DNA of 30,447 nucleotides from Kiritimatiellia bacterium (GCA_007126995.1 SLAD01000341.1:1-30447); one strand, 5' to 3'; shown: positions 1,828 through 18,402, numbered from the stretch's first letter. A program made the numbers and translations. The notes: a model not told the origin generated them from the sequence alone.

Positions 1828-2640
1828 TCAGCGCATTTCTTGCCCGCCGGTAACGTTGATGGCCTGCCCGGTCATGTACGACGCCGTGTCGGAGGCCAGG
1901 AACAGTACGACGTTGCCGATATCCTCGTAGGTGCAGCCGCGTTGCAGCGGGACTTGTTTGATATAATGTTGCCGCACATCTTCAATCGATTGGGCGCCGG
2001 GCACTTTGCCGGCTTTGAAATACTGCACGAAGAGGCCCTGATCAGGATCGGTCCATAACGGCGATTCCAGCAAGTTGCCGGGACAGACCGCATTCACGCG
2101 CACGCCGTACGGAGCCATTTCGAGCGCGGCGCTTTGCACCAGACCGATTCCGCCAAACTTGCTCGCGGCATACGCGGAGTTCGCCGCACTACCCTTTTTC
2201 CCCGACTTGGAATTGATCTGAATAATGGCACCCGATCGCTGCTCCTTCATTTGGCGGCAGGCATGCTTGAGGGTCAAAAACTGGCCGAACAAGTTCACGT
2301 TCATGACGGCGCGCCATTTTTCGGCGTCGGCGGTATCAATCGGTTCGGCGATCAAAATGGCGGCGTTGGCAACGACCAGATCGACGCGCCCGAATTCTTG
2401 CACGGTTTCGGCGAATAGCCGTTCGACGTCCGCCTCCTTCGTCACGTCCCCGGCCACGGCCAGTGTGGATTGTCCCGTCTTCTTCGCCACATCGGCGACC
2501 GTCGCCTGCACAGCGTCACTTTTCAAATCGAATACGGAGACGGCATACCCTTCACGGGCCAACCGTTCCGTCAGCGCAGCACCCAATCCCTGTGCGCCGC
2601 CGGTGACAATGGCCACTTTATCTTTTCCTGCATCGGTCAT
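1828..2640 (-). CDS. srlD: Sorbitol(hexitol)-6-phosphate dehydrogenase-like short-chain dehydrogenase
   Basis: Start at ATG 2640 by ATGA overlap with the upstream stop (270 aa). TGGAQGLG, NSKSGKKGS, catalytic YAASK, CPGNLL and C-terminal YMTGQAINVTGGQEM match SrlD/SorD. True substrate is unproven. Confidence 0.8.
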   Translation of the reverse strand: MTDAGKDKVAIVTGGAQGLGAALTERLAREGYAVSVFDLKSDAVQATVADVAKKTGQSTLAVAGDVTKEADVERLFAETVQEFGRVDLVVANAAILIAEPIDTADAEKWRAVMNVNLFGQFLTLKHACRQMKEQRSGAIIQINSKSGKKGSAANSAYAASKFGGIGLVQSAALEMAPYGVRVNAVCPGNLLESPLWTDPDQGLFVQYFKAGKVPGAQSIEDVRQHYIKQVPLQRGCTYEDIGNVVLFLASDTASYMTGQAINVTGGQEMR

Positions 2641-4202
2641 GGCTGTTCTCCAAATGACTTCAACAACGCCCGCTCCGCCTCTTTCGTCCATACGCCGTCT
2701 TGTAAGTGTTGTGCCACGTCCGGGTAGGCTTCGGCGAGTTCTGTCAGGCGCGTTAGTTTCAAGCCGCGACAAGCCGGGTAGACCAGTATTTTGCCAGGGA
2801 TCGTCTGATGCTCCACGGCACGGATGCCGTCCACCGCACCGTCGAGACCGCTGATCGCCGCCACAGAGAGATTCGTGTCGAGCTGACGCTGAGTGACTTT
2901 CGAGAGCACGATCTTCATGTCCTCGATCGTGCTACCGCTGGTGCCAATGAAGTAGGCTTGGCGCTCGATATAGCTATCGAGATCAAGCGGATGCGTCACC
3001 TCCGCCGGGATGCCGGCGAAGATGTTGATGATGGCTTTGGGCGCCGCCTGCTCCACCGCTTGGGCCACGAGGCCGGGCACGGGCACCATCAGGGCGATGA
3101 CGTTGAACGGTCCGGGCGGAGCGTCGGTTTTCGCATTGTACCCGCGGTAGCCGACGCCATTGGCGGCGGCCAAGGGCTCGGCGAGCTTACTCAACTGGGC
3201 CAGTCGCTCGTCGCTCATGTCGCCGGCGTACACCGTGATGCCCTGCACGCCTTGGCACAGGTTGCGGATGACGTGCATCGTGCCCATCGGGCCGGCGGCG
3301 CCTACCACGTTGATGGCGTCGCCCGCGCGGATTTCGCCGTTTTCCGGGATGGCGGCATAGCCTGCATCCGGATCGGAACCGGTGGTCCCGGTGATGCGCA
3401 CGCCGCCGTAATGGATCCGGCCAACCGGCGTGACAACCGGACGCCCGAACGTCTCGCCGCGCTGCACGATATTGATGAGCGCATGCTTGGCCAGCTTCGG
3501 GAAGACCGCCTCCAGCAGATCGGCGTCAGCGCCAAGAAAGATGACATCGTCGAGCGACTCCGCCGGGATCCGGTCCAGCGCTGAGCGATCATATGCGGAT
3601 GAATCCACAGTCAGCACGCAGCCACCCTCGCGAGGCGCCCGCCGTTCGCGAACCACGTACGAGTCTTCGACGCAGGCCCACGGTTCCACCAAGGCGATGG
3701 CCGAGGCGGAAAGATCCTCGGCGGCCGGGATCAGCATCGACTCGCCGTTCGGTGAAGTGATTACGCGCTCATCCATCAGCACATACTCCTGCAGTCCGCC
3801 CTCGAAATTATATCCGAAGGCCGCGTTGGAGTTGGCTGTCCTCAACCAGCGATAATCCGTTTGCACAAGGCGCCGGTCGCCGGGTTGCACGCCGTGTACT
3901 TGATCGCCGACGGCCACCACGCGCACAACCGTTTCATGACCGGGCACCGCCGGTTTCTGGTCCGGCACATAGCTGGGGATTTCGTTTAGGGTGGCCTGAT
4001 CCAGGATCGTGACCACGGGGGATTTGCGCACATGTGCGTCAAACTGCTTCAGCAGTTTGAGGTCCGAAAAGCAGAGGCCGGTGACTTCGATCCGGGCAAG
4101 AATTTGATGCGGTCCGGGCTGCGGAATAGTCTTCTGTTCATTCAGTTCGAGCGTGTCCGGGCCGGTTAGTTGTACCGCGCGTTGGTGTGAAGGTACCGTC
4201 AT
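2637..4202 (-). CDS. Zn-dependent medium-chain dehydrogenase, L-sorbose-1-phosphate reductase (SorE)-like, with internal extra domain
   Basis: Start at ATG 4202 by ATGA overlap (521 aa). GLCFSD and PGHE catalytic-Zn ligands, FGYNFEGGLQEY, EPWACV and VGAAGPMG. No four-Cys structural-Zn lobe. Confidence 0.8.
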   Translation of the reverse strand: MTVPSHQRAVQLTGPDTLELNEQKTIPQPGPHQILARIEVTGLCFSDLKLLKQFDAHVRKSPVVTILDQATLNEIPSYVPDQKPAVPGHETVVRVVAVGDQVHGVQPGDRRLVQTDYRWLRTANSNAAFGYNFEGGLQEYVLMDERVITSPNGESMLIPAAEDLSASAIALVEPWACVEDSYVVRERRAPREGGCVLTVDSSAYDRSALDRIPAESLDDVIFLGADADLLEAVFPKLAKHALINIVQRGETFGRPVVTPVGRIHYGGVRITGTTGSDPDAGYAAIPENGEIRAGDAINVVGAAGPMGTMHVIRNLCQGVQGITVYAGDMSDERLAQLSKLAEPLAAANGVGYRGYNAKTDAPPGPFNVIALMVPVPGLVAQAVEQAAPKAIINIFAGIPAEVTHPLDLDSYIERQAYFIGTSGSTIEDMKIVLSKVTQRQLDTNLSVAAISGLDGAVDGIRAVEHQTIPGKILVYPACRGLKLTRLTELAEAYPDVAQHLQDGVWTKEAERALLKSFGEQP

Positions 4203-5473
4203 GATCGTGCCCTCGATAAGGCAATTGGTTTGCCGGGTGCAGTGGTGCGGCCGATTTCCTCGAAATAGGCGTTTCGTTCCCGGCGATCCGGGAAATTGTG
4301 GCATGCCCATTCGCTCATGTAGCCCCAGCCGTATTGACGCTGCATTAACGTGTGCGCGTACACGATATAGGCGCTCTTCAGAAAGAGGGGCAGATGAGGA
4401 GCAAGCTCCTCCGATGCGAAGTCATCGACGAACCGTTGGCCCGGCGCATTCATCTCTGTGCCCACGAGGACGGGCAGGTCACGGCTTCCGGCGAGCGCGA
4501 TAATGTTCTTCAGGTTCGCGAGTTTCTGGTCCTTCACGCCCGGCGTGAAATTTCGGTCGGGGATAATGTTGATGGCAGACACGCCGGAGGACATCGCTAT
4601 ATCCAACCATTCCTCCATGCGTTGTTCACCCTCCGATTCGCCGTCCAGCCAGGCCAAGGTCGGGATGCCACCGGCGCGCAGGACGAATGCATTCATGGCG
4701 TCCAGGGAGGGAAATGAACGAGCCTCCGGAGCTACGTAACCGACGCCGCCCCGCTTCATCGTGCGCGCTCGTATCCGGTCCAGCAGTCGACTCGCGTCTG
4801 GCAAATCTTCGGCGGACACGTCCTCGCCCAGCTTGTCGCTCCAGAACGCTTGCAAGTCGGACATCGCAGCGAATTGGTCTGCCGCGCGGCGCGCATAGGC
4901 GCGGGAAATGTGACGCTCCGTCGCGTTTTGCCGCGGCGTCATAGGTAACACATCGTGAACATAATCGATTTCGACCGGGGACAGGTAGGCGTTAACGCGT
5001 TCGATCAATTCCCGGTTGCGCTGGCCCGCCCTGCGCAGCAGCTCCTGCAAAAAGTGTTCCTCATCGGGGCCAATGGATCGCTGGGGCATGCCGACCCCCA
5101 TATGATACGCGATGCCCGGCTCGCCCGGTGAATTGATGACGGAGCCGGCCAAGCGCGGCACGTGAACGCGCGATTCGATGCCCGCACAGACGCGCAGCTT
5201 CAGTAGCCGCCCCGCCTCCAGAAATTCCTCCAGCCCGTCCAGCACGTCAAAGTCAACAAGGCCAGCCACCTGCAACCCTTCGCAGCGAGCGCGCCAAGCA
5301 ATCGCGGCAGGCGAATAATCCTCCGCATTAAACGAGTAGAAGGTGTGCAGGTGTAGATTGACCGCATCCCGGTCTGGATATTCGTCATCAACGATGCGAC
5401 GGGACAACTCGGCGAGCGCCTCCCGTCTCACCTCGGGATCGAAACTATTCAGTTGTGCAATCCACTCACTCAT
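4199..5473 (-). CDS. PHP-domain (metal-binding barrel) protein of unknown function
   Basis: Likely start ATG 5473 (424 aa); the longer track ORF runs antisense into deoR. HLHTFYS (HxH), GLVDFD, GIES and AYHMG motifs. Short HEAT-like N-terminal helix pair. Coupled to the two dehydrogenases by ATGA overlaps. Confidence 0.75.
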   Translation of the reverse strand: MSEWIAQLNSFDPEVRREALAELSRRIVDDEYPDRDAVNLHLHTFYSFNAEDYSPAAIAWRARCEGLQVAGLVDFDVLDGLEEFLEAGRLLKLRVCAGIESRVHVPRLAGSVINSPGEPGIAYHMGVGMPQRSIGPDEEHFLQELLRRAGQRNRELIERVNAYLSPVEIDYVHDVLPMTPRQNATERHISRAYARRAADQFAAMSDLQAFWSDKLGEDVSAEDLPDASRLLDRIRARTMKRGGVGYVAPEARSFPSLDAMNAFVLRAGGIPTLAWLDGESEGEQRMEEWLDIAMSSGVSAINIIPDRNFTPGVKDQKLANLKNIIALAGSRDLPVLVGTEMNAPGQRFVDDFASEELAPHLPLFLKSAYIVYAHTLMQRQYGWGYMSEWACHNFPDRRERNAYFEEIGRTTAPGKPIALSRARS

Positions 5474-5593
5474 AATGATGAAGGACGATAATATACCAAC
5501 CGAACAAATGCAATCGGAAATAAACAAAGAATATTTTAGTTGCTTTGATGCCCGAATTGTGGGAGCGTAGGTCGAATGCGGGGGAGGCAAACT
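5474..5593. promoter_or_regulatory. AT-rich divergent control region between PHP operon and deoR-kinase operon
   Basis: 120-bp intergenic gap, clearly more AT-rich than the flanking genes. AACAAA occurs at 5503 and 5523 (20-bp spacing). SD GGGAGG precedes ATG 5594. Confidence 0.6.
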
Positions 5594-6406
5594 ATGTTGG
5601 CATTGCAGAGACAGCGCGAAATCTTGAGGCTGATCGAACAGGAGGGCGCGGTGCGGGTAGCGAACCTCGCGCGTCGGTTTAAGGTCACCGAGGAAACCAT
5701 TCGTCGCGATCTTACCACGCTCGAGAATACCGGACGTGTGACGCGCAGTCACGGCGGCGCTGTGCTCTCGCTATCGTCGCGGCTTGAGGTGCCGCACCAG
5801 CAGCGCGAGGTACTCAACAAGGCGGAGAAGATCCGGATTGCCAACGAGGCCGTGCAGCGCGTTAGCCGGGGCGACGCCCTGCTCTTGGATGCAAGCTCGT
5901 CCGCGCTGTTTCTGGCCCAGCAATTGCCCGATATGCCATTGACCGTGCTCACCAACTCCGTCGCCGTTGTGAACACCCTGGCAGATTACAAACGCATCAA
6001 GCTGATCGGGGTGGGCGGCACGTTTGCGCCGATGACGATGTCATTCGTCGGACCCTCCGCCCTCAACAGCTTGAAGGAGTATCATGTCGACAAGCTCTTC
6101 TTTTCGTGCCGCGGACTCGATGTGGGACGGGGATTGAGCGATTCCAGCGAAGCCACCGCCCAGGTCAAGCAACAGATGTTACAGATTGCGGATCAGCGCA
6201 TTTTGTTGGCGGACCACAGCAAGTTCGGCGTGCGCGCGCTGGCGGTGATCGCCGATCTAAGCGCGATCACGGAACTGATCACGGATGATCGCGCGGATGC
6301 GCAGCAGTGCGAAATCATACAAAAGCTGGGCGTGCCGGTAACGCAGACGCAAACCGTCGCCCCCGACCCGTTGCCGGACGCCGCGCCGGATTATGCGAAC
6401 ACCTGA
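5594..6406 (+). CDS. DeoR/GlpR-family transcriptional regulator (copy 1)
   Basis: Start ATG 5594 with SD (270 aa). HTH VTEETIRRDL, SHGGA, LDASSS, VLTNS and LADHSKFG. Confidence 0.95.
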   Translation: MLALQRQREILRLIEQEGAVRVANLARRFKVTEETIRRDLTTLENTGRVTRSHGGAVLSLSSRLEVPHQQREVLNKAEKIRIANEAVQRVSRGDALLLDASSSALFLAQQLPDMPLTVLTNSVAVVNTLADYKRIKLIGVGGTFAPMTMSFVGPSALNSLKEYHVDKLFFSCRGLDVGRGLSDSSEATAQVKQQMLQIADQRILLADHSKFGVRALAVIADLSAITELITDDRADAQQCEIIQKLGVPVTQTQTVAPDPLPDAAPDYANT

Positions 6407-6433: not shown

Positions 6434-7927
6434 ATGCCGGACCGCAAGAAAAAGAATTATGTCGCCTTGGATTTGGGCGCGGGGAGTGGGCGCGCGATAC
6501 TGGGCTCGTTTGACGGAGAGCGCTTGAGTCTGGAAGAGGCGCATCGCTTTCCCAATGATCCCGTATCGTTGCCCGACGGGTTGCATTGGGATGTCTTAAG
6601 GCTGTTCTCGGACATGAAGCAGGGGCTGATCAAGGCAGCGGGCATGGCGGACGGACCGATTGACGGCATCGCCGTGGATACGTGGGGGGTTGATTACGCA
6701 TTGCTCGACGACGAAGGGCGTCTTTTGGGCAATCCGCATCATTATCGCGACGCGCGCACGGACGGCATGCTGGAGGAGGCGTTCCGGCGCATGCCGCGCG
6801 AGGAGATATTCGCGTCCACGGGGCTGCAGTTCATGCAGATCAATACCGCCTTTCAACTCTTGTCCCAAGTGTTGCAGCAGGACCCTGCGCTGAAGACGGC
6901 AGAGCGATTACTGATGACGCCCGATTTGTTTCACTATTGGCTGACGGGGCGACAGGTCGCGGAGCGCACGATTGCCAGCACGAGTCAGTGCTACAACCCC
7001 GCACAAGACGAGTGGGCGCAGGATGTGATCGAAAAGCTCGGGCTTCCTCTCAAGATTTTCCCTGAGATCGTGTCGCCGGGCACCGTATTGGGGCCGCTAC
7101 GCGCGGACGTGGTCAGCGAGACGGGGCTCGCCGATACCCCCGTGATTGCGGTGGGTTGTCACGACACCGCCAGCGCGGTGGCGGCCGTGCCGTTGGCGGG
7201 CGCGGGCGAAGCGTATTTGAGTTCCGGCACGTGGTCGCTGCTTGGCGTCGAGGTGCCCGCACCGGTGATTGATGAGAACAGTCTGAAGTACAACTTTACG
7301 AATGAGGCCGGCGTCGCCGACACGATTCGCTTGCTGAAAAACATCACTGGCTTGTGGCTGACACAAGAATTACGGCGCGTGTGGAATGCGGAAGGTGAGT
7401 CTCTCAGCTTTGAGGACTTGGCGGAACTGGCGCAATCGGCAGAGCCGTTTGCTCATTTCATTGATCCCGACGACCCCGTCTTCCTGGCGCCGGGCGACAT
7501 GGTCCCGCGCATCGCGGAGTTTTGTCGCCGAACCGGACAGCCGGAGCCGACCACGCGCGGCGCGATTTTGCGCACCGCCTACGAGAGTTTGGCTTTCAAG
7601 TATCGCTGGGTGTTGGATCTACTGGAGAAACTGACCGGCGAAACCCTGCACACGATTCACGTGGTGGGCGGAGGCAGCCGCAATGCCGCCCTGAATCCGT
7701 GGACAGCGTCCGCGACCGGACGCACGGTGCGGATTGGCCCCGGCGAAGCGACGGCAACGGGGAACGTTTTGCTCCAGATGATTGCCACGGGCCAGCTTGC
7801 GTCCGTCGAGGAAGGCCGGGAACTCGTGCGGGCCTCCTTCCCTTCCGAGACCTTTGAGCCACAGGACACGCAGGTTTGGGATGAAGCATACGGTCGATTC
7901 TGCGCCTGCGTGGGGTTGAGTCTGTGA
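6434..7927 (+). CDS. rhaB: Rhamnulokinase-family (FGGY) ketose 1-kinase; may act on L-fuculose given linked fucI
   Basis: 497 aa with DLGAGSGR, IAVDTWGVDY, YRDART, HDTASA, YLSSGTWSL, TNEAG, LKNITGLW and VVGGGSRN. Confidence 0.9.
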   Translation: MPDRKKKNYVALDLGAGSGRAILGSFDGERLSLEEAHRFPNDPVSLPDGLHWDVLRLFSDMKQGLIKAAGMADGPIDGIAVDTWGVDYALLDDEGRLLGNPHHYRDARTDGMLEEAFRRMPREEIFASTGLQFMQINTAFQLLSQVLQQDPALKTAERLLMTPDLFHYWLTGRQVAERTIASTSQCYNPAQDEWAQDVIEKLGLPLKIFPEIVSPGTVLGPLRADVVSETGLADTPVIAVGCHDTASAVAAVPLAGAGEAYLSSGTWSLLGVEVPAPVIDENSLKYNFTNEAGVADTIRLLKNITGLWLTQELRRVWNAEGESLSFEDLAELAQSAEPFAHFIDPDDPVFLAPGDMVPRIAEFCRRTGQPEPTTRGAILRTAYESLAFKYRWVLDLLEKLTGETLHTIHVVGGGSRNAALNPWTASATGRTVRIGPGEATATGNVLLQMIATGQLASVEEGRELVRASFPSETFEPQDTQVWDEAYGRFCACVGLSL

Positions 7928-8565
7928 AGGCGTACATCTTCGACATGGACGGCGTCTTGTGTGATTCGGAAGCCATTCTCGCTGAAGCGGCGTGCCGAGT
8001 GTTTCAGGAACATCACGGGGTTCAGCCGTCGCCCGCCGATTTCTTGCCCTTTGTTGGGGCCGGGCCCGACCGTTACCTGCAGGGCGTAGCGGAGCAGCAC
8101 CGTGTCGAGGCCGTATTGCCCCGGGACAAGGAAGCCATGTATCGCCTCTATGCCGAGCTCGTTCCGGGTCAGCTCCAGCCACTGAATGGCGTGATCGAGT
8201 TTGTACGTGCGGCGCACGCGCAGGGCATTCGGGTGGCGGTGGCCACCAGCGCCGATCCGTTCAAGGTTAAGCTCAATCTGGAGGAGATTGATCTGGATGC
8301 GAAGCTATTGTCGACGATGGTGACAGGCGCGGACGTCACGCGCAAGAAACCGGATCCTGCGATCTTTCTTGAAGCTGCGGCACGAATGGATGTGACTCCG
8401 ACCGACTGTCTGGTTTTCGAGGATGCCGTCAACGGTGTACAGGCGGCGAAGGCGGCGGGGATGCGCTGCATCGGCATCACATCGCTGTTCGACGCCGACA
8501 CCCTGCGCGCGGCCGGCGCAGATGAGACGTGGCCGGACTTCAGCGGGGCCACCCCCGCAGTTTAG
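7924..8565 (+). CDS. HAD-superfamily hydrolase (beta-PGM/hexitol-phosphatase-like)
   Basis: GTG start overlaps the kinase stop (GTGA). FDMDGV (motif I), VATS, KKPDP and FEDAVNGVQAA. Confidence 0.9.
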   Translation: MKAYIFDMDGVLCDSEAILAEAACRVFQEHHGVQPSPADFLPFVGAGPDRYLQGVAEQHRVEAVLPRDKEAMYRLYAELVPGQLQPLNGVIEFVRAAHAQGIRVAVATSADPFKVKLNLEEIDLDAKLLSTMVTGADVTRKKPDPAIFLEAAARMDVTPTDCLVFEDAVNGVQAAKAAGMRCIGITSLFDADTLRAAGADETWPDFSGATPAV

Positions 8566-9567: not shown

Positions 9568-9631
9568 CGACCAATGACATTTGGTTTATACATCAAGCTC
9601 GATCTCCGCCCCCGTTGCTTTGTGACACATT

Positions 9632-9692: not shown

Positions 9693-10466
9693 ATGATTTC
9701 ATCTAGAGAACTTGCGCCGGAGCGGCAAGGACGCGTTGCCACCTACATTCGGGATCGGGGAGCAGCCCGCATTGAGGAGCTGGTGAAGGTATTTGATGTC
9801 GCACCCGCAACCGTGCGACGCGACCTTGCGACACTGGAGGAGCAGGGCCGTATCCGGCGGGTGCATGGCGGCGCAGTGGCAACAGAGTCGCGCCTGGATG
9901 AACCACTCTTCGACGACAAGACCTCGATTGCCGCTCGCGAGAAACGCCGGATCGCAGAAAAGGCCCTGACCCTGATTGAATCGGGCGATACGGTCTATCT
10001 CGACGGCGGCAGCACCGTCCTCGAACTGGCCCGGCTCCTCACCAACCGCTCAGACGTGACGGTGGTCACCAACTCGCTGCGCGCCGCCATTGAACTCTCC
10101 GGTCGCGGGCCTCGCCTCATTTTCGTCGGCGGCGAGTTGCGCCGACTGAGCCAAACCACAGTCGGCACCCTGACACGCTTGCTGCTGGATCAAATCCACG
10201 TGGACAAGGCCTTCATGGGCACAATGGGGATCTCCCTGCCCGAGGGCATTACAACCACCGACCCGAACGAGGCCTACACCAAGGAACTGGTGCTGTCGCG
10301 GGCCGCACAGTCCATCCTGCTGGCTGACAGCAGCAAGGCCGGGAAAGTGACCTTCGCCCGGTCAGGCGACATACGACAAATCAATACCATCATCACGGAC
10401 AAGGATTTTCCCGCACACCTAGCCAAGACGCTCAAGAAGATGGGCACGGAATTGCTGCGGGTCTGA
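9693..10466 (+). CDS. DeoR/GlpR-family transcriptional regulator (copy 2)
   Basis: 257 aa with VAPATVRRDL, VHGGA, LDGGSTV, VVTNS and LADSSKAG. Confidence 0.95.
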   Translation: MISSRELAPERQGRVATYIRDRGAARIEELVKVFDVAPATVRRDLATLEEQGRIRRVHGGAVATESRLDEPLFDDKTSIAAREKRRIAEKALTLIESGDTVYLDGGSTVLELARLLTNRSDVTVVTNSLRAAIELSGRGPRLIFVGGELRRLSQTTVGTLTRLLLDQIHVDKAFMGTMGISLPEGITTTDPNEAYTKELVLSRAAQSILLADSSKAGKVTFARSGDIRQINTIITDKDFPAHLAKTLKKMGTELLRV

Positions 10467-10479
10467 AAGGATTACAAGC

Positions 10480-11817
10480 ATGGCCACACCAATCATTATG
10501 CCGCGCCAAGGACAGTCCGTTGAAAGCTGTATCCTGATTGAGTGGGCGGTGAAACCGGGCGACACCGTGAAATCCGGCGATATCGTCGCCAGCATTGAAA
10601 CGGACAAAGCGACCTTCGATGTGGAATCACCCGCCGATGGCACCATCATTGAGTTGTTCTTCGAGGAGGGCGCGGATGTGCCGGTGCTGACGCACATTGC
10701 TGCGGTGGGCGAACCGGGCGAAGACGTGTCCGCGCTACGACCAGACAATGCGGCGCAACAACCTGAATTCGCCGCTCAGAAGACAGAAACCGAAACCCAG
10801 CGCACGGAGCGCCAAGACCAACAAGAGACCGCGCAACCGGCAACCCCCACCCCACAACCTGCAACCCATGCCGCCTCTCCGCGTGCACGCAATCACGCCG
10901 AGCGCGCAGGCGTACAGATCCAAGGGCTGGTCGGCAGCGGGCCGCGCGGGCGCGTGATCGAACGCGATGTGATCGCAGCGACTTCCGAGCGTGCCCGCAT
11001 GAGTCCGGCCGCCAAAGCGGCGGCTCGGGACGGCCTCACAGCCCCACCATCCGGCAGCGGCCCCGGTGGCATGGTATTGACAGCCGACCTACGAGCGGCC
11101 TCCGCTGCTGAGGCGCCACGCGAGATTCCGGTCAAAGGTGTGCGCAAGATCATCGCCGAACGCATGATGAAGTCGCTCACCTCTACGGCACAATTGACGC
11201 TGAACCGCTCGTTCGACGCAACCGCGATCCAAGCCTTCCGCGCCAAGGTCAAGCAGCACGGCGAACACTTCGGCCTGAGCGCCCTGACCATCAACGATCT
11301 CATCGTCTTCGCAACGGTCCGCACACTGCTGCGTCACCCTGAATTGAATGCCCATTTCCTCGGCGATCACATCCTGCAATTCCCGTCCGTGAACATGGGC
11401 ATTGCCGTCGACACCCCGCGCGGATTGATGGTGCCGGTGGTGCAAAGCGCGGAGCAAATGAATGTCACCGAACTCGCCCGCGCAATCCGCCCGCTGGCGA
11501 AAGCTTGTCAGGAAGGCCATATCGATCCCGATCGACTCACTGGCGGCACCTTTACGATCACCAACCTCGGCGCACTCGGCATTGAAAGCTTCACACCCGT
11601 ACTGAATGCGCCGGAGGTAGCGATCCTCGGTGTCGGAGGACTCTACCTCAAGCCCATCAAGGGCGCGAATGGCGTCGAACATGTCGAGGCGATGAACTTG
11701 AGCCTGACCATCGATCATCAAGCTGTGGACGGCGCACCCGGCGCACGTTTCCTGCAAGATCTGGCGAACGCTCTGGAAAATATCGAACTGCTCTTAAGCG
11801 AAAGCGTGAACGCATGA
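10480..11817 (+). CDS. Dihydrolipoamide acyltransferase (E2) of a 2-oxoacid/acetoin dehydrogenase-type complex
   Basis: 445 aa. One lipoyl domain (IETDKA), P/A/T/Q-rich linker, subunit-binding repeats, GGTFTITNLG and catalytic TIDHQAVDG. Confidence 0.95.
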   Translation: MATPIIMPRQGQSVESCILIEWAVKPGDTVKSGDIVASIETDKATFDVESPADGTIIELFFEEGADVPVLTHIAAVGEPGEDVSALRPDNAAQQPEFAAQKTETETQRTERQDQQETAQPATPTPQPATHAASPRARNHAERAGVQIQGLVGSGPRGRVIERDVIAATSERARMSPAAKAAARDGLTAPPSGSGPGGMVLTADLRAASAAEAPREIPVKGVRKIIAERMMKSLTSTAQLTLNRSFDATAIQAFRAKVKQHGEHFGLSALTINDLIVFATVRTLLRHPELNAHFLGDHILQFPSVNMGIAVDTPRGLMVPVVQSAEQMNVTELARAIRPLAKACQEGHIDPDRLTGGTFTITNLGALGIESFTPVLNAPEVAILGVGGLYLKPIKGANGVEHVEAMNLSLTIDHQAVDGAPGARFLQDLANALENIELLLSESVNA

Positions 11818-13160
11818 AGGAATACGATTTCATTGTCATCGGCGGCGGCCCCGCCGGCTACATTGCGGCCGAACGAGCAGCCGAGCAAGGCCTGAAGACA
11901 CTGCTCGCCGAGCACCGCCACCTGGGTGGCGTATGCCTGAATGAAGGCTGCATTCCCTCTAAAACGCTGCTGCATAGCGCAAAGCTTTATCATTATGCCA
12001 CCCATTCCGCCGCCTACGGCGTATCGGCGGAGAATGTCAGCTTCGATTTCGGTCCCGTACAGGAACGCAAGAACCGGATCATCCAAACCATTCGCCAAGG
12101 CGTCGGCGGGCTGATGAAGAAGTACAAGGTGGACGTGATCAATGATCGCGCACAACTTTTGCCCGAAGACAGCGTGCAGATCGGTGACGACACTTTCAAA
12201 GCCAAACAGGTACTGATCGCCACGGGCTCGTCCCCCGCGCGCCCGCCGATCAAGGGCACTGATCTGCCGGGTGTGCTGGATTCGACCGGCATTCTGGCGT
12301 GCGACGCTGCACCGAAAAGCCTGGTCATCATCGGCGGCGGGATCATCGGTTGTGAATTTGCCTGCTTCTTTGGATCAATCGGCGTGCCCGTAACGGTAGT
12401 CGAAATGCTCCCGGAAATCTGTCCGTCGGTGGACCCGGGAATCGCCCGCCTGCTGCGAAAGGAACTGGAAAAGAAGAATGTCACGTTCCATCTCAATGCG
12501 CGCGTGGAGGAAATCACGGAGCAGGACGTGCGATTCGCGGTTAACGGCGAGATGAAAACGGTCGCACGCGATCTCGTCCTGCTTTCGACGGGTCGGACAC
12601 CCAACGTGGATGGACTCGGCCTGGAACATCGCCGCGTGGACTTTAGCCAGCGCGGCATTCGAGTAGACGATCGCTGCGCAACCAATGTGCCGGGCGTATG
12701 GGCCGCCGGCGATGTGACCGGACGCGTATGGCTCGCGCACGCAGCATCGCGAATGGGCGAAGTCGTCGTGAACAACATTACCGGACGACCGGACCACATG
12801 CGTTATCACGCTGTGCCCGGCGTGATCTATACCAACCCCGAAGTGGCCACCGTCGGCTGGACCGCCGACCAGGCGCGTGAGCAAGGATGGCCGGTGCGTA
12901 CGGCGAAGGTGCCGCTGACCATCAACGGACGTTATCTGGCCGAACACGAGGACGAGCGCGGCATCGCGAAGGTGGTGCTGCACGCCGAAACCAATGCGCT
13001 GCTGGGTGTACACATGATCGGCGCGGCCTGCTCGGAGATGATTTTCGGCGCGGCCACCATGATCGAGATGGAGGTGCGATCGCAGGAAATCGCCGATCTG
13101 GTGTTCCCCCACCCGACCGTATCGGAAGTTATACGCGATGCCGTACTGGCCGCGAAATGA
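11814..13160 (+). CDS. lpdA: Dihydrolipoamide dehydrogenase (E3)
   Basis: 448 aa with GGGPAG, redox GGVCLNEGCIPSK, GGGIIG, WAAGDV and C-terminal HPTVSE. ATGA overlap with E2. Confidence 0.95.
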   Translation: MKEYDFIVIGGGPAGYIAAERAAEQGLKTLLAEHRHLGGVCLNEGCIPSKTLLHSAKLYHYATHSAAYGVSAENVSFDFGPVQERKNRIIQTIRQGVGGLMKKYKVDVINDRAQLLPEDSVQIGDDTFKAKQVLIATGSSPARPPIKGTDLPGVLDSTGILACDAAPKSLVIIGGGIIGCEFACFFGSIGVPVTVVEMLPEICPSVDPGIARLLRKELEKKNVTFHLNARVEEITEQDVRFAVNGEMKTVARDLVLLSTGRTPNVDGLGLEHRRVDFSQRGIRVDDRCATNVPGVWAAGDVTGRVWLAHAASRMGEVVVNNITGRPDHMRYHAVPGVIYTNPEVATVGWTADQAREQGWPVRTAKVPLTINGRYLAEHEDERGIAKVVLHAETNALLGVHMIGAACSEMIFGAATMIEMEVRSQEIADLVFPHPTVSEVIRDAVLAAK

Positions 13161-13221
13161 TCGAACCCTGTTTGAAACAGATTATTGAGACCTTTAGACA
13201 GAAAGTGAGATGAACTGAGTC

Positions 13222-15672
<2,451 letters not shown>

Positions 15673-15713: not shown

Positions 15714-17480
15714 ATGAGCACATATCCAACCGTAGGCATTCGCCCCACGATTGACGGTCGTCTGGGCGGCGTCCGCGAATCGCTCGAAGCTCAAACCATG
15801 AAACTGGCGGGCGCGGCGGCAAAACTGATCGAAGGCACGCTGCGCCATCCCGATGGATCGCCGGTGCGATGCGTCATTGCAGAAACGTGCATCGGGGGCG
15901 TCGCAGAAGCGGCAGCCTGCGCGGACTTGTTCCGGCGCGAGAATGTCGGCGTCTCGCTCACCGTCACCCCGTGCTGGTGTTACGGGTCCGAAACGATGGA
16001 CATGGATCCCTTGATCCCCAAAGCCGTCTGGGGCTTTAACGGGACGGAGCGCCCGGGTGCCGTGTATCTAGCGGCAGTACTGGCAGGCCATGCGCAAAAG
16101 GGCTTTCCCGCTTTCGGCATTTACGGCCGCGACGTGCAGGACGCCGGCGACGCCAAAGTCCCTGCCGACGTGCGCGACAAGATTTTGCGCTTCGTGCGGG
16201 CCGGTTTGGCTGCGGCCACCATGCGGGGCCGCGCATATCTCGCCATGGGCGGCACGTCCATGGGCATCGCGGGATCGATCGTGGATCAGAACTTCTTTGA
16301 GGAGTATCTCGGCATGCGGGTCGAGTCGATCGACATGAGCGAGTTCATCCGACGAATCGAACGCGAAATTTATGATCCCGACGAATATGCACACGCCCTG
16401 AAATGGGTGAAGAAGAACTGCAAGGAGGGCAAGGACTACAACGAACCATCCAAGAAGCGCGCCCGCAAGGCACTGGATCGCGAGTGGGAAATCAGCGTGA
16501 AAATGGCGCTGATCGCGCGCGACCTGATGGTCGGCAATCCCAAGCTGGCGGAAATGGGCTATGGCGAAGAGGCGCATGGGCATCACGCCATCGCGTCGGG
16601 CTTCCAAGGCCAACGCCAATGGACCGATCACATGCCGAACGGGGACTTCATGGAGGCCATCCTCAACACGTCCTTCGACTGGAACGGCATACGCGCGCCC
16701 TACATCGTCGCGACGGAAAACGATGCGCTCAATGGGGCGTCGATGCTCTTCAACTATTTGCTGACCAACACCGCGCAAATTTTCGCGGACGTGCGGACCT
16801 ATTGGAGCCCGGCAGCCGTGAAAAAGGCGACCGGCTACAAGGTCACCGGTCGGGCCGGCGGCGGCTTCTTGCACCTGATCAATTCCGGCCCCGCGACGCT
16901 GGACGGCACGGGTCGTCAGCAGGTTAAAGGCAAGCCTGCCATGAAACCTTTCTGGGACATCACACAAAAGGAAGCCCAAGCGTGCTTGGATGCGACGACG
17001 TGGCATCCGTCCATGACGGAGTATTTCCCCGGTGGTGGCTGGTCCACGCGCTACGCGACGAAGGGCGGCATGCCGGTTACGATGTGCCGCATCAACCAAT
17101 TCAAGGGCTTGGGACCGGCGCTCCAGATCGCCGAAGGCTGGACGATCGATCTGCCCGCGAAAGTGCACAAGCAGCTCGACGAGCGCACCAACCCGACCTG
17201 GCCCACGACTTGGTTTGTGCCGAACCTTACCAAGTCGGGCGTGTTCCGTGATGTCTACTCCGTCATGAACGCCTGGGGCGCCAATCACGGCGCCATCAGC
17301 TACGGCCACATCGGCGGCGACCTGATTGCCTTGGCGGCGCTACTCCGGATCCCGGTGTACATGCATAACGTCGATGAGGAGGAGGTCTTCCGGCCCAACA
17401 TGTGGAATGGGTTCGGCACGGCGGATCGCGAGAGCGCCGATTTCCGCGCCTGCGCTACGCTGGGTCCGCTATACGGCTGA
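15714..17480 (+). CDS. fucI: L-fucose isomerase (L-fucose/D-arabinose isomerase)
   Basis: 588 aa, [34 protein letters not shown], and metal-ligand motifs [13 protein letters not shown] and WGANHG. Confidence 0.97.
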
Positions 17481-17499: not shown

Positions 17500-18402
17500 A
17501 TGAAGAAGCCATTACCAACGCACGAAACGACATCATACGGCGGCTGGCCGAATTGCGTCAGGATTTCCGACGGGAAGACGGAGGCCATTGTCACGACCGA
17601 CGTGGGTCCCCGGATTATCCGGTTCGCCCCGGTCGGCGGTGAAAATCAGCTTAAGGAGTTCCCGGAACAGCTCGGCCGCACCGGCGGCAAGGAATGGCGA
17701 ATCTATGGCGGCCACCGCCTGTGGGTGGCCCCGGAGGACGCGGACCGTTCGTATGTGCCGGACAACAAACCAGTGGAATGGTCCTGGCGCAACCCAACAC
17801 TGACACTAAAACAAGCGGCAGACGTGCTCTATGGCTTGGCCAAGGAAATGCGCCTGCGCTGGTTGGCGGATGGATCGTTGGAAGTCAAACATCGCTTGAT
17901 TAACCGGTCGCGGCGCAAAGTGGAATTAGCGCCTTGGGCCCTGACCGTCATGGCCCCGGGCGGCGAGGCCGTCATCCCGCAGGAACCCTACGCGCCGCAC
18001 CCCGAAGCGCTGGTCCCCGTTCGCCCGCTCGTCCTATGGGCGTATTCCAACATGAGCGATCCGCGCTGGACCTGGGGCGATCGCGAAATCCGGCTGCGAC
18101 AGGACCGGCGGCGCCGGGCCCCGCTCAAAGTCGGCCTGTTCAGTCGGCAAGGCTGGATGGCCTACGTGCGCGATGGCTATGCCTTCATCAAGAAACATCC
18201 CGTCGTTACCGGCAAACCGCACCCGGATTACGGCTGCAACGTGCAAACGTTTACCAATCAAGACATGCTTGAACTGGAAACGCTCGGCCCCTTGGTCACG
18301 TTAAAGCCGGGTGCCCGCGCGGAACTTATCGAACAATGGCAACTACACAAGGTGCGCGGAAATCCCGGACTGAAACAACTCGCTCGACTGGCCACAACCT
18401 GA
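17500..18402 (+). CDS. Uncharacterised galactose-mutarotase-like beta-sandwich protein (DUF4380-like)
   Basis: ATG 17500 behind SD GGAGG (300 aa). VGPRIIRF, YGGHRLWVAPE, WAYSNMSDPRW and MLELETLGP. Family assignment is from memory. Confidence 0.65.
   Translation: MKKPLPTHETTSYGGWPNCVRISDGKTEAIVTTDVGPRIIRFAPVGGENQLKEFPEQLGRTGGKEWRIYGGHRLWVAPEDADRSYVPDNKPVEWSWRNPTLTLKQAADVLYGLAKEMRLRWLADGSLEVKHRLINRSRRKVELAPWALTVMAPGGEAVIPQEPYAPHPEALVPVRPLVLWAYSNMSDPRWTWGDREIRLRQDRRRRAPLKVGLFSRQGWMAYVRDGYAFIKKHPVVTGKPHPDYGCNVQTFTNQDMLELETLGPLVTLKPGARAELIEQWQLHKVRGNPGLKQLARLATT

Follow-up and report, generated by a model that had tools for sequence, protein, structure and literature searches.

Why would a SorE-like and an SrlD-like dehydrogenase be encoded side by side in a locus without a sugar phosphotransferase system (PTS), and on what would they act? 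The question is posed by positions 1828-4202 of SLAD01000341.1:1-30447, a stretch of 30,447 nt (referred to below, at its full length, as the window) from the metagenome-assembled genome (MAG) of a Kiritimatiellia bacterium, GCA_007126995.1 (2.47 Mb, 429 contigs, 71.5% complete). An initial annotation had described a translationally coupled pair, a SorE-like medium-chain dehydrogenase/reductase (MDR) and an SrlD-like short-chain dehydrogenase (SDR), and had proposed that a RhaB-family kinase supplies the phosphate and that the pair turns an L-ketose-1-phosphate into a D-ketose-6-phosphate (or 5-phosphate) by head-to-tail inversion of a non-sorbose substrate. Here, we report that the pair is the tail of a three-gene unit found beside deoxy-sugar genes in several phyla, and we discuss our leading prediction, a shift of the keto group along a phosphorylated 6-deoxy sugar, against its alternatives.

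Results

The dehydrogenase pair is the tail of a three-gene operon

The features of the operon, with the evidence for each, are as follows.

1828-2640, minus strand: SrlD-like SDR, 270 aa (Pfam, NCBIfam, solved structure, quick tree)
2637-2640, minus strand: stop codon of the MDR and start codon of the SDR sharing ATGA (sequence)
2637-4202, minus strand: long zinc MDR, 521 aa, a distant member of the SorE/YggP clade (Pfam, BLASTP, hhalign, alignment)
4199-4202, minus strand: stop codon of PHP and start codon of the MDR sharing ATGA (sequence)
4199-5473, minus strand: metal-dependent phosphoesterase-like protein with a PHP fold, 424 aa; its gene opens the operon and constantly accompanies that of the MDR

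The coordinates and the coupling of the pair were exactly as first annotated: the stop codon TGA of the MDR and the start codon ATG of the SDR share the tetranucleotide ATGA at 2637-2640, and GGAG stands 9 nt upstream. What had been overlooked is the PHP gene coupled upstream. PHP, MDR, and SDR form a head-to-tail minus-strand unit of three genes in which both junctions are ATGA stop/start overlaps, and the pair is the tail of that unit. The observation is confirmed as real and not due to chance, because the same arrangement recurs in 80 loci that we fetched from Verrucomicrobiota, Kiritimatiellae, Lentisphaerales, Planctomycetota, and Armatimonadota. Two competing readings of the region, a plus-strand open reading frame (ORF) of 258 aa at 2808-3584 and a TTG-extended SDR of 314 aa, were rejected as artefacts of high G+C. 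A scan for promoters and terminators gave nothing exceeding shuffled sequences.

To place the SDR, we compared it with family models, solved structures, and characterized enzymes. It matches Pfam adh_short (7.9e-56) and marginally passes the NCBIfam model for sorbitol-6-phosphate dehydrogenase (NF009050, 314.4 bits, cut-off 307). Its nearest solved structure is Erwinia SrlD (5O3Z, 1e-56; next-best match 1e-40). A full-length comparison with E. coli SrlD gives 45.5% identity, and SorD of the Citrobacter sor operon is 30% identical to it. The sequence carries the motif TGGAQGLG, the catalytic YAASK, and an Asp after strand 2, which is of the NAD type. In a quick tree, which has long branches and should be read with caution, the SDR and 28 MDR-adjacent orthologues are sister to SrlD (Shimodaira–Hasegawa-like approximate likelihood ratio test, SH-aLRT, 97) and not to RhaW domains, while the W domains of RhaEW-like fusions from the Planctomycetes-Verrucomicrobia-Chlamydiae (PVC) group cluster with the W domain of rhizobial RhaEW. 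Given the tree and the 45% identity to SrlD, we rejected orthology of the SDR with RhaW. No glucitol PTS context (srlAEB) accompanies the SDR (the best tblastn matches of SrlA, SrlE, and SrlB in the MAG had E values of 0.17 or worse), and no RhaE-like gene neighbors it in the window; a RhaE-like gene lies on contig C296 beside RhaA. By these comparisons, the SDR, as first annotated, clearly belongs to the SrlD lineage, of which the defining activity is the oxidation of D-glucitol-6-phosphate to D-fructose-6-phosphate.

The MDR also proved to be SorE-like, although it is a long form with insertions. Of the Pfam models, only ADH_N passes (1.9e-11), and no NCBIfam equivalog matches. We used as references the SorE of a genuine Citrobacter sor operon (SorC, SorD, SorFBAM, SorE) and E. 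coli YggP. BLASTP aligned the MDR with Citrobacter SorE in two segments at 27-29% identity, and hhalign aligned the two end to end (probability 98.8%, E 1e-16, positions 10-537 versus 4-403). In a six-sequence alignment of long MDRs, SorE, and YggP, the zinc ligands C44, H89-E90, and E173 are invariant, as are a Lys five residues past the catalytic Cys (Lys49), Arg110, and Gln114; MDR, SorE, and YggP also have in common the motifs GxGPMG, FAGxP, GTSG, and GK..Y and a C-terminal GxW..AE tail. The MDR has no Cys-rich (structural-zinc) lobe. Relative to SorE, it contains insertions of ~19 residues (about 61-79) and ~100 residues (about 186-289), so that at 521 aa it departs from the compact ~410-aa SorE architecture, and its identity to SorE is below that of an orthologue. 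The AlphaFold2 model, built from a 12-row alignment, has a mean predicted local distance difference test score (pLDDT) of 64.7, with the catalytic domain poorly modelled and the ~100-residue insert confidently modelled as a separate alpha/beta unit; Foldseek returned generic MDR dehydrogenases at probability 1.0, with TM-scores that are low owing to the poor model. We conclude that the MDR belongs, on alignment evidence, to the SorE/YggP clade as a distant long form rather than as an orthologue of SorE, which corrects the initial annotation in that the form is atypical. The activity that defines this clade is the NAD(P)H-dependent reduction of L-sorbose-1-phosphate to D-glucitol-6-phosphate. 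The long MDR family is large and uncharacterized, its clusters in the sequence atlas being named only "hypothetical" or "alcohol dehydrogenase". Elsewhere in the same MAG (contig C179:5816-5941, locus L086), a run of 42 residues is 71% identical to the N terminus of the long MDR; it lies within an ORF of 84 aa midway along a contig of 11 kb, away from any PHP or SDR gene, and looks like the remnant of a second copy of the gene.

Like the SDR, the MDR has an Asp after the second Rossmann strand, which suggests that both enzymes use NAD(H). Because both look NAD-specific, each should be able to recycle the other's cofactor, which would make the two steps redox-neutral.

The PHP protein has a complete metal site, with the residues HxH, D, E, H, and D invariant. 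Its predicted model (pLDDT 89.4) has as best structural matches the pAp phosphatase 2YB1, 3O0F (Bad_1165), and RNase AM. PHP and MDR are the constant core of the 80 related loci: the PHP gene lies directly upstream of the MDR gene in 67 of the 73 informative loci, and there is an apparent overlap or fusion in one more. In a locus from Verrucomicrobiia (L075:8847-11452), the PHP and MDR matches overlap by ~30 bases, and a fusion is possible.

A kinase and not a PTS is the probable source of phosphate

The genes divergent from the operon include a kinase, an isomerase, and a lipoamide complex.

5576-6406, plus strand: DeoR-family regulator, divergent from the PHP-MDR-SDR operon (profile matches)
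6434-7927, plus strand: RhaB-type FGGY ketose kinase, presumed source of the phosphorylated substrate (TIGR02627, synteny)
7924-8565, plus strand: HAD-IA phosphatase/mutase-like gene, overlapping the kinase stop (profile matches)
9693-10466, plus strand: second DeoR-family regulator, heading the E2-E3-E1-FucI operon
10480-15672, plus strand: lipoamide E2, E3, and fused alpha/beta thiamine E1 (below the pyruvate dehydrogenase equivalog cut-offs)
15714-17480, plus strand: L-fucose isomerase FucI (1048 bits, cut-off 775)
17500-18402, plus strand: TTE1925-family mutarotase-like protein

The reference sor and yggP loci carry a PTS. In the window, domain scans of all ORFs found no PTS domain, in agreement with the initial annotation, which had also called for a search for sugar Enzyme II (EII) genes across the genome. 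That search returned none: neither the EII-Sor nor the PTS_EIIC families matched in the MAG (71.5% complete) or in the genomes of five further carriers, which include a closed chromosome, and tblastn with SorFBAM, SrlAEB, and CmtAB against the MAG gave nothing better than E 0.058. With no matches in this incomplete MAG, which does encode an Enzyme I homologue on another contig, we rejected the idea that a sorbose or glucitol PTS for the pair is encoded outside the window. These results support the conclusion that a PTS is not the phosphate donor for the pair.

The kinase scores 452 bits against TIGR02627, below the cut-off of 528. In all 31 informative loci of the Planctomycetota type, it is co-directional with and directly upstream of PHP-MDR as one unit, and a single orthologue of it is encoded in each of the five other carriers. 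The RhaB-family kinase that had been proposed as the phosphate source is therefore backed by synteny, and the supply itself is our inference. The RhaB-type kinase would phosphorylate the ketose at C1, and so no PTS would be needed.

Among the remaining genes, a PaaX-like gene is inserted on the plus strand between the HAD gene and the second DeoR-family regulator. The HAD-IA gene has as its best named matches the beta-phosphoglucomutase-family and hexitol phosphatase HxpB models, and none of the 80 related loci contains a counterpart of it. A 9-mer, GTTGCTTTG, occurs at 5539-5547 and at ~9614-9622, 5' of both DeoR genes; with ~0.3 occurrences expected this is within chance and gives no evidence of a shared operator.

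Gene content of the related loci

The SrlD-like SDR gene directly follows the MDR gene in 27 of 30 loci of the Verrucomicrobiota type and in none of 39 of the Planctomycetota type. In 15 loci from Verrucomicrobiia, a stand-alone RhaE-like gene comes directly after the SDR. The E1/E2/E3 complex is encoded within 10 kb in 14 of 35 Verrucomicrobiota-type loci, and in three of that type (L018, L062, and L063) the SDR is followed directly, with no gap, by E1-E2-E3. Planctomycetota-type loci have kinase-PHP-MDR, then usually DUF2961, RhaA, and RhaT, with a fused RhaEW-like protein nearby; an adjacent SDR and a fused RhaEW-like protein never co-occur. In many Planctomycetota rhamnose operons, the DUF2961 gene stands between the long MDR and RhaA (L024:11788-13059, L048:11710-12789) and a RhaT-type symporter follows.

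We found no canonical FucA or RhaD in the MAG or in the five other carriers, where AraD is the only strong gene of the class II aldolase family. Each of the five carriers has one RhaE(W)-like gene, and none has microcompartment shell genes. The genome studied here has three shell (PF00936) genes on contig C361:6328-9090. The assembled part of the MAG yielded no class II aldolase beyond AraD and the RhaE-like gene.

Five fetched loci (L025, L029, L042, L051, and L056) are labelled Bifidobacteriaceae, Methylomirabilota, Kuenenia, or Alphaproteobacteria, yet have the typical Verrucomicrobiota or Planctomycetota organization at 60-70% identity, which suggests mis-binned contigs or wrong labels. 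On plasmid p380k of Deinococcus sp. AJ005 (L084:11135-15131), the genes of an SDR, a long MDR of 564 aa, and an FGGY kinase that is not RhaB overlap and are followed by a GntR regulator, with no PHP. This MDR is 28.6% identical to that of the window and has the large insertion. The cluster is divergent from genes for mannose-6-phosphate isomerase, an AGE epimerase, a ROK kinase, and an ABC transporter, and it may represent a PHP-less form of the module that serves hexoses.

Discussion

Proposed reactions

We consider a redox-neutral keto-group shift on L-fuculose-1-phosphate or L-rhamnulose-1-phosphate to be the most likely function of the pair, with the chances for and against it roughly equal. 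FucI (or RhaA, encoded elsewhere in the genome) would make a 6-deoxy-L-ketohexose, which the RhaB-type kinase would phosphorylate at C1. The long MDR would then reduce the C2 keto group with NADH to give a 6-deoxy-L-hexitol-1-phosphate. Numbered from its opposite end, this molecule is a 1-deoxy-D-hexitol-6-phosphate, and the SrlD-like SDR would re-oxidize it at the carbon next to the methyl group, giving 1-deoxy-D-ketohexose-6-phosphate and returning the NADH. The net effect would be a transfer of the carbonyl between the two ends of the chain at no redox cost. The choice of a 6-deoxy-L-ketohexose-1-phosphate as the probable substrate follows from the context, FucI and a mutarotase here and RhaA and RhaT in relatives. 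Relative to the phosphate, the site of re-oxidation would be the position that SrlD attacks in glucitol-6-phosphate; since 1-deoxy-D-hexitol-6-phosphate departs from the SrlD substrate class in nothing but its lack of a 1-hydroxyl, the regiochemistry that we predict fits an enzyme 45% identical to SrlD. The keto shift is further favored by the family placement and cofactor type of the two enzymes, the coupling of their genes, the linked kinase and isomerase, the lack of matches to PTS EII, FucA, and RhaD, the lipoamide complex next to the SDR in some loci, and two independent recurrences, namely the Deinococcus plasmid cluster and the Caldicellulosiruptor cluster in which SrlD and SorE adjoin an acetoin-dehydrogenase-like complex and RhaA.

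The interpretation in the initial annotation is thereby partly supported. A non-sorbose substrate agrees with the 6-deoxy context and the inversion is predicted chemistry, but the expected product is 1-deoxy-D-ketohexose-6-phosphate rather than an ordinary glycolytic ketose-6-phosphate, and such a product would require a further cleaving enzyme. One candidate for the fate of this methyl ketol is the acetoin-dehydrogenase-like E1/E2/E3 complex, which would yield acetyl-CoA and a tetrose-4-phosphate. Another is the RhaE-like protein of the class II aldolase family, which would act as a 4-epimerase or would cleave the ketol to acetol and glyceraldehyde-3-phosphate. Taken furthest, these steps would make up an L-fucose/L-rhamnose pathway independent of aldolase and microcompartment, in which the keto shift is followed by a RhaE-like 4-epimerase and by acetoin-dehydrogenase-like cleavage to acetyl-CoA and erythrose-4-phosphate, with PHP at a further step, so that no carbon is left unused and lactaldehyde does not arise; we put this forward tentatively, as possible but doubtful.

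Several observations weigh against a keto shift. PHP, the most constant partner of the MDR, is phosphatase-like and has no role in the scheme. The MDR is 27-29% identical to SorE, so that the specificity of SorE is not transferable, and the function of the module is predicted from sequence. The SDR is not universal, being absent from that position in all 39 Planctomycetota-type loci, which have a fused RhaEW-like protein instead, and this complementary pattern may mean that the SDR works with the aldolase-like protein rather than with the MDR. The genome itself, in a MAG that is 71.5% complete, has microcompartment shell genes and a RhaE-like gene beside RhaA. Finally, C. saccharolyticus converts rhamnose to 1,2-propanediol, acetate, H2, and CO2 at 1:1:1:1 (PMC4187192); these products fit aldol cleavage, or acetol plus glyceraldehyde-3-phosphate, and they do not fit a main flux to acetyl-CoA plus a tetrose phosphate in that organism.

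Alternative explanations

The main rival, which we regard as unlikely but serious, is an aldolase route: the RhaE-like protein would cleave the ketose-1-phosphate to dihydroxyacetone phosphate (DHAP) and L-lactaldehyde, the SDR would replace RhaW in forming lactate, the MDR would be a lactaldehyde reductase that replaces FucO and forms 1,2-propanediol, and the lipoamide complex might make an acyl-CoA from lactaldehyde. The co-conserved PHP and the RhaE-like partner, both overlooked at first, keep this route in play. An SDR with a stand-alone RhaE-like protein and a fused RhaEW-like protein exclude each other across the loci and hence look like equivalents, RhaA has a RhaE-like gene as its neighbor in this genome, the five other carriers have one RhaE(W)-like gene each, and RhaW domains themselves reach 209-231 bits on the SrlD model. 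Caldicellulosiruptor, moreover, makes stoichiometric 1,2-propanediol without known lactaldehyde enzymes (PMC4187192, PMC8579813), and Rodionov et al. assigned the lactaldehyde step in C. bescii to the lipoamide complex (PMC8579813). Against this, the SDR clusters in the tree with SrlD, to which it is 45% identical, rather than with RhaW domains, and the MDR keeps the SorE/YggP signature (Lys49, Arg110) and the ketose-phosphate reductase tail. The RhaEW-like proteins of PVC bacteria, moreover, share only ~30% identity with rhizobial RhaEW and fall far short of the equivalog cut-offs. The tight operon of PHP, MDR, and kinase and the phosphoesterase fold of PHP point to phosphorylated substrates, and the role of PHP is explained by the aldolase route no better than by the keto shift.

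Two further explanations keep the reductase chemistry and change its purpose. A genuine sorbose- or glucitol-type pathway for hexoses or polyols might merely be juxtaposed with deoxy-sugar genes, in which case a ketohexose-1-phosphate made by the kinase (e.g., L-sorbose-1-phosphate) would be converted to hexitol-6-phosphate and then to fructose-6-phosphate without a PTS. SorE and SrlD are indeed the nearest characterized relatives, the Deinococcus SDR-MDR-FGGY cluster adjoins mannose-type and not deoxy-sugar genes, and Rodionov et al. labelled the Caldicellulosiruptor genes "Sorbose?" (PMC8579813); nonetheless, we judge this improbable, given that the kinase is RhaB-type, that in dozens of loci from several phyla the module sits among RhaB, RhaA, and RhaT or beside FucI, that the Caldicellulosiruptor cluster is rhamnose-induced and its presence tracks growth on rhamnose (PMC4187192), and that the linked lipoamide complex is left unexplained. 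The other explanation is reduction followed by dephosphorylation, with the MDR acting on the ketose-1-phosphate (or DHAP), a PHP phosphatase freeing the polyol as an electron sink or solute, and the SDR being peripheral. Such pairs of reductase and phosphatase are known for the formation of mannitol, sorbitol, and glycerol, and this explanation has in its favor the invariant, translationally coupled PHP-MDR core and the complete metal site and phosphoesterase fold of PHP. It would, however, waste the ATP spent by the co-operonic kinase with no carbon recovered, it does not explain the links to the SDR, the RhaE-like protein, and the lipoamide complex, and no polyol exporter is present in the clusters examined; we hold it to be the least probable of these readings.

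Implications

Fucose and rhamnose figure among the major sugars in the glycans of algae, plants, and mucus, of which PVC bacteria are key degraders, and the textbook routes for both sugars pass through toxic lactaldehyde and often need microcompartments. In the literature on fucitol and rhamnitol phosphates, on sorbose-1-phosphate reductase in connection with fucose, rhamnose, or PVC bacteria, and on acetoin dehydrogenase in connection with fucose, we found no description of the pathway. The module that we describe is widespread across several phyla and embedded in deoxy-sugar loci, to judge from the genomes, and its function is a prediction. Its carriers have a kinase, PHP, a long SorE-like dehydrogenase, an SrlD-like or RhaEW-like dehydrogenase, and often a lipoamide complex. 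Because this conserved set occurs in genomes in which we found no FucA or RhaD, metabolic reconstructions probably mis-score the use of deoxy sugars in many environmental genomes. If the keto shift is true, a PTS-dependent hexose module has been rewired to a kinase and to 6-deoxy substrates, and the methyl end of fucose and rhamnose has a new fate. Culturable and genetically tractable carriers of homologous genes exist, such as Caldicellulosiruptor, in which they are rhamnose-induced.

Comparison with known systems

The closest parallel is the enterobacterial L-sorbose pathway (SorE with SorD/SrlD), in which the same two enzyme lineages stand side by side. Both systems have a DeoR-type or sugar-binding regulator nearby, and the predicted logic is the same by analogy, reduction at C2 and then re-oxidation at the far end. 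Unlike the enterobacterial pathway, the locus described here has no PTS, and a RhaB-type kinase with FucI or RhaA would supply the substrate; the MDR gene precedes the SDR gene and is itself preceded by an obligatory PHP gene; and the expected product is a 1-deoxy ketose phosphate, not fructose-6-phosphate.

The RhaEW pathway, defined by Rodionova et al. 2013 (PMC3870299), combines RhaA and RhaB with a bifunctional rhamnulose-1-phosphate aldolase/lactaldehyde dehydrogenase and is represented by B. subtilis YuxG and in Chloroflexus (PMC3870299). In the assays of RhaEW in that study, neither DHAP nor lactate was formed from rhamnulose-1-phosphate without NAD+ (PMC3870299). A need for NAD+ is unexpected of a simple aldolase, and oxidation may precede or drive cleavage in enzymes of the RhaEW type. 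The context of RhaA, RhaB, and RhaT is common to both systems, and the clusters described here contain both a RhaE-like domain of the class II aldolase family and an SDR related to SrlD, fused in Planctomycetota and split in Verrucomicrobiota. To our knowledge, PHP and the long MDR have no counterpart in the characterized RhaEW pathway (the B. subtilis operon).

The rhamnose locus of C. bescii encodes FucA, RhaD1, a hypothetical protein, SrlD, SorE, LipB, LipA, acetoin-dehydrogenase-like E2/E3/E1, a DeoR regulator, and RhaA (Rodionov et al. 2021, PMC8579813). The Caldicellulosiruptor cluster (Csac_0865-0876 / Athe_0695-0706) is rhamnose-induced, and the functions of its extra genes were stated to be unclear (PMC4187192, PMC8579813). 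Compared by published annotation only, it has in common with the module SrlD, SorE, the acetoin-dehydrogenase-like complex, DeoR, and RhaA. Its SrlD and SorE are much closer to the enterobacterial enzymes than are those described here (51% identity to E. coli SrlD and 54% to Klebsiella SorE; PMC8579813), and it also has LipB and LipA.

The E2/E3/E1 subunits of Caldicellulosiruptor are 33-42% identical to Aco proteins (PMC8579813). The acetoin dehydrogenase system (AcoA/AcoB/AcoC/AcoL) is a thiamine/lipoamide complex that converts a methyl ketol to acetyl-CoA and an aldehyde, which is the chemistry that the proposed product would need. In the window, by contrast, E1 is a single fused alpha/beta chain, none of the subunits reaches its NCBIfam equivalog cut-off, and the ketol to be cleaved would have six carbons and a phosphate. 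The E1/E2/E3 complex encoded beside FucI is our candidate for the consumer of the product of the dehydrogenase pair.

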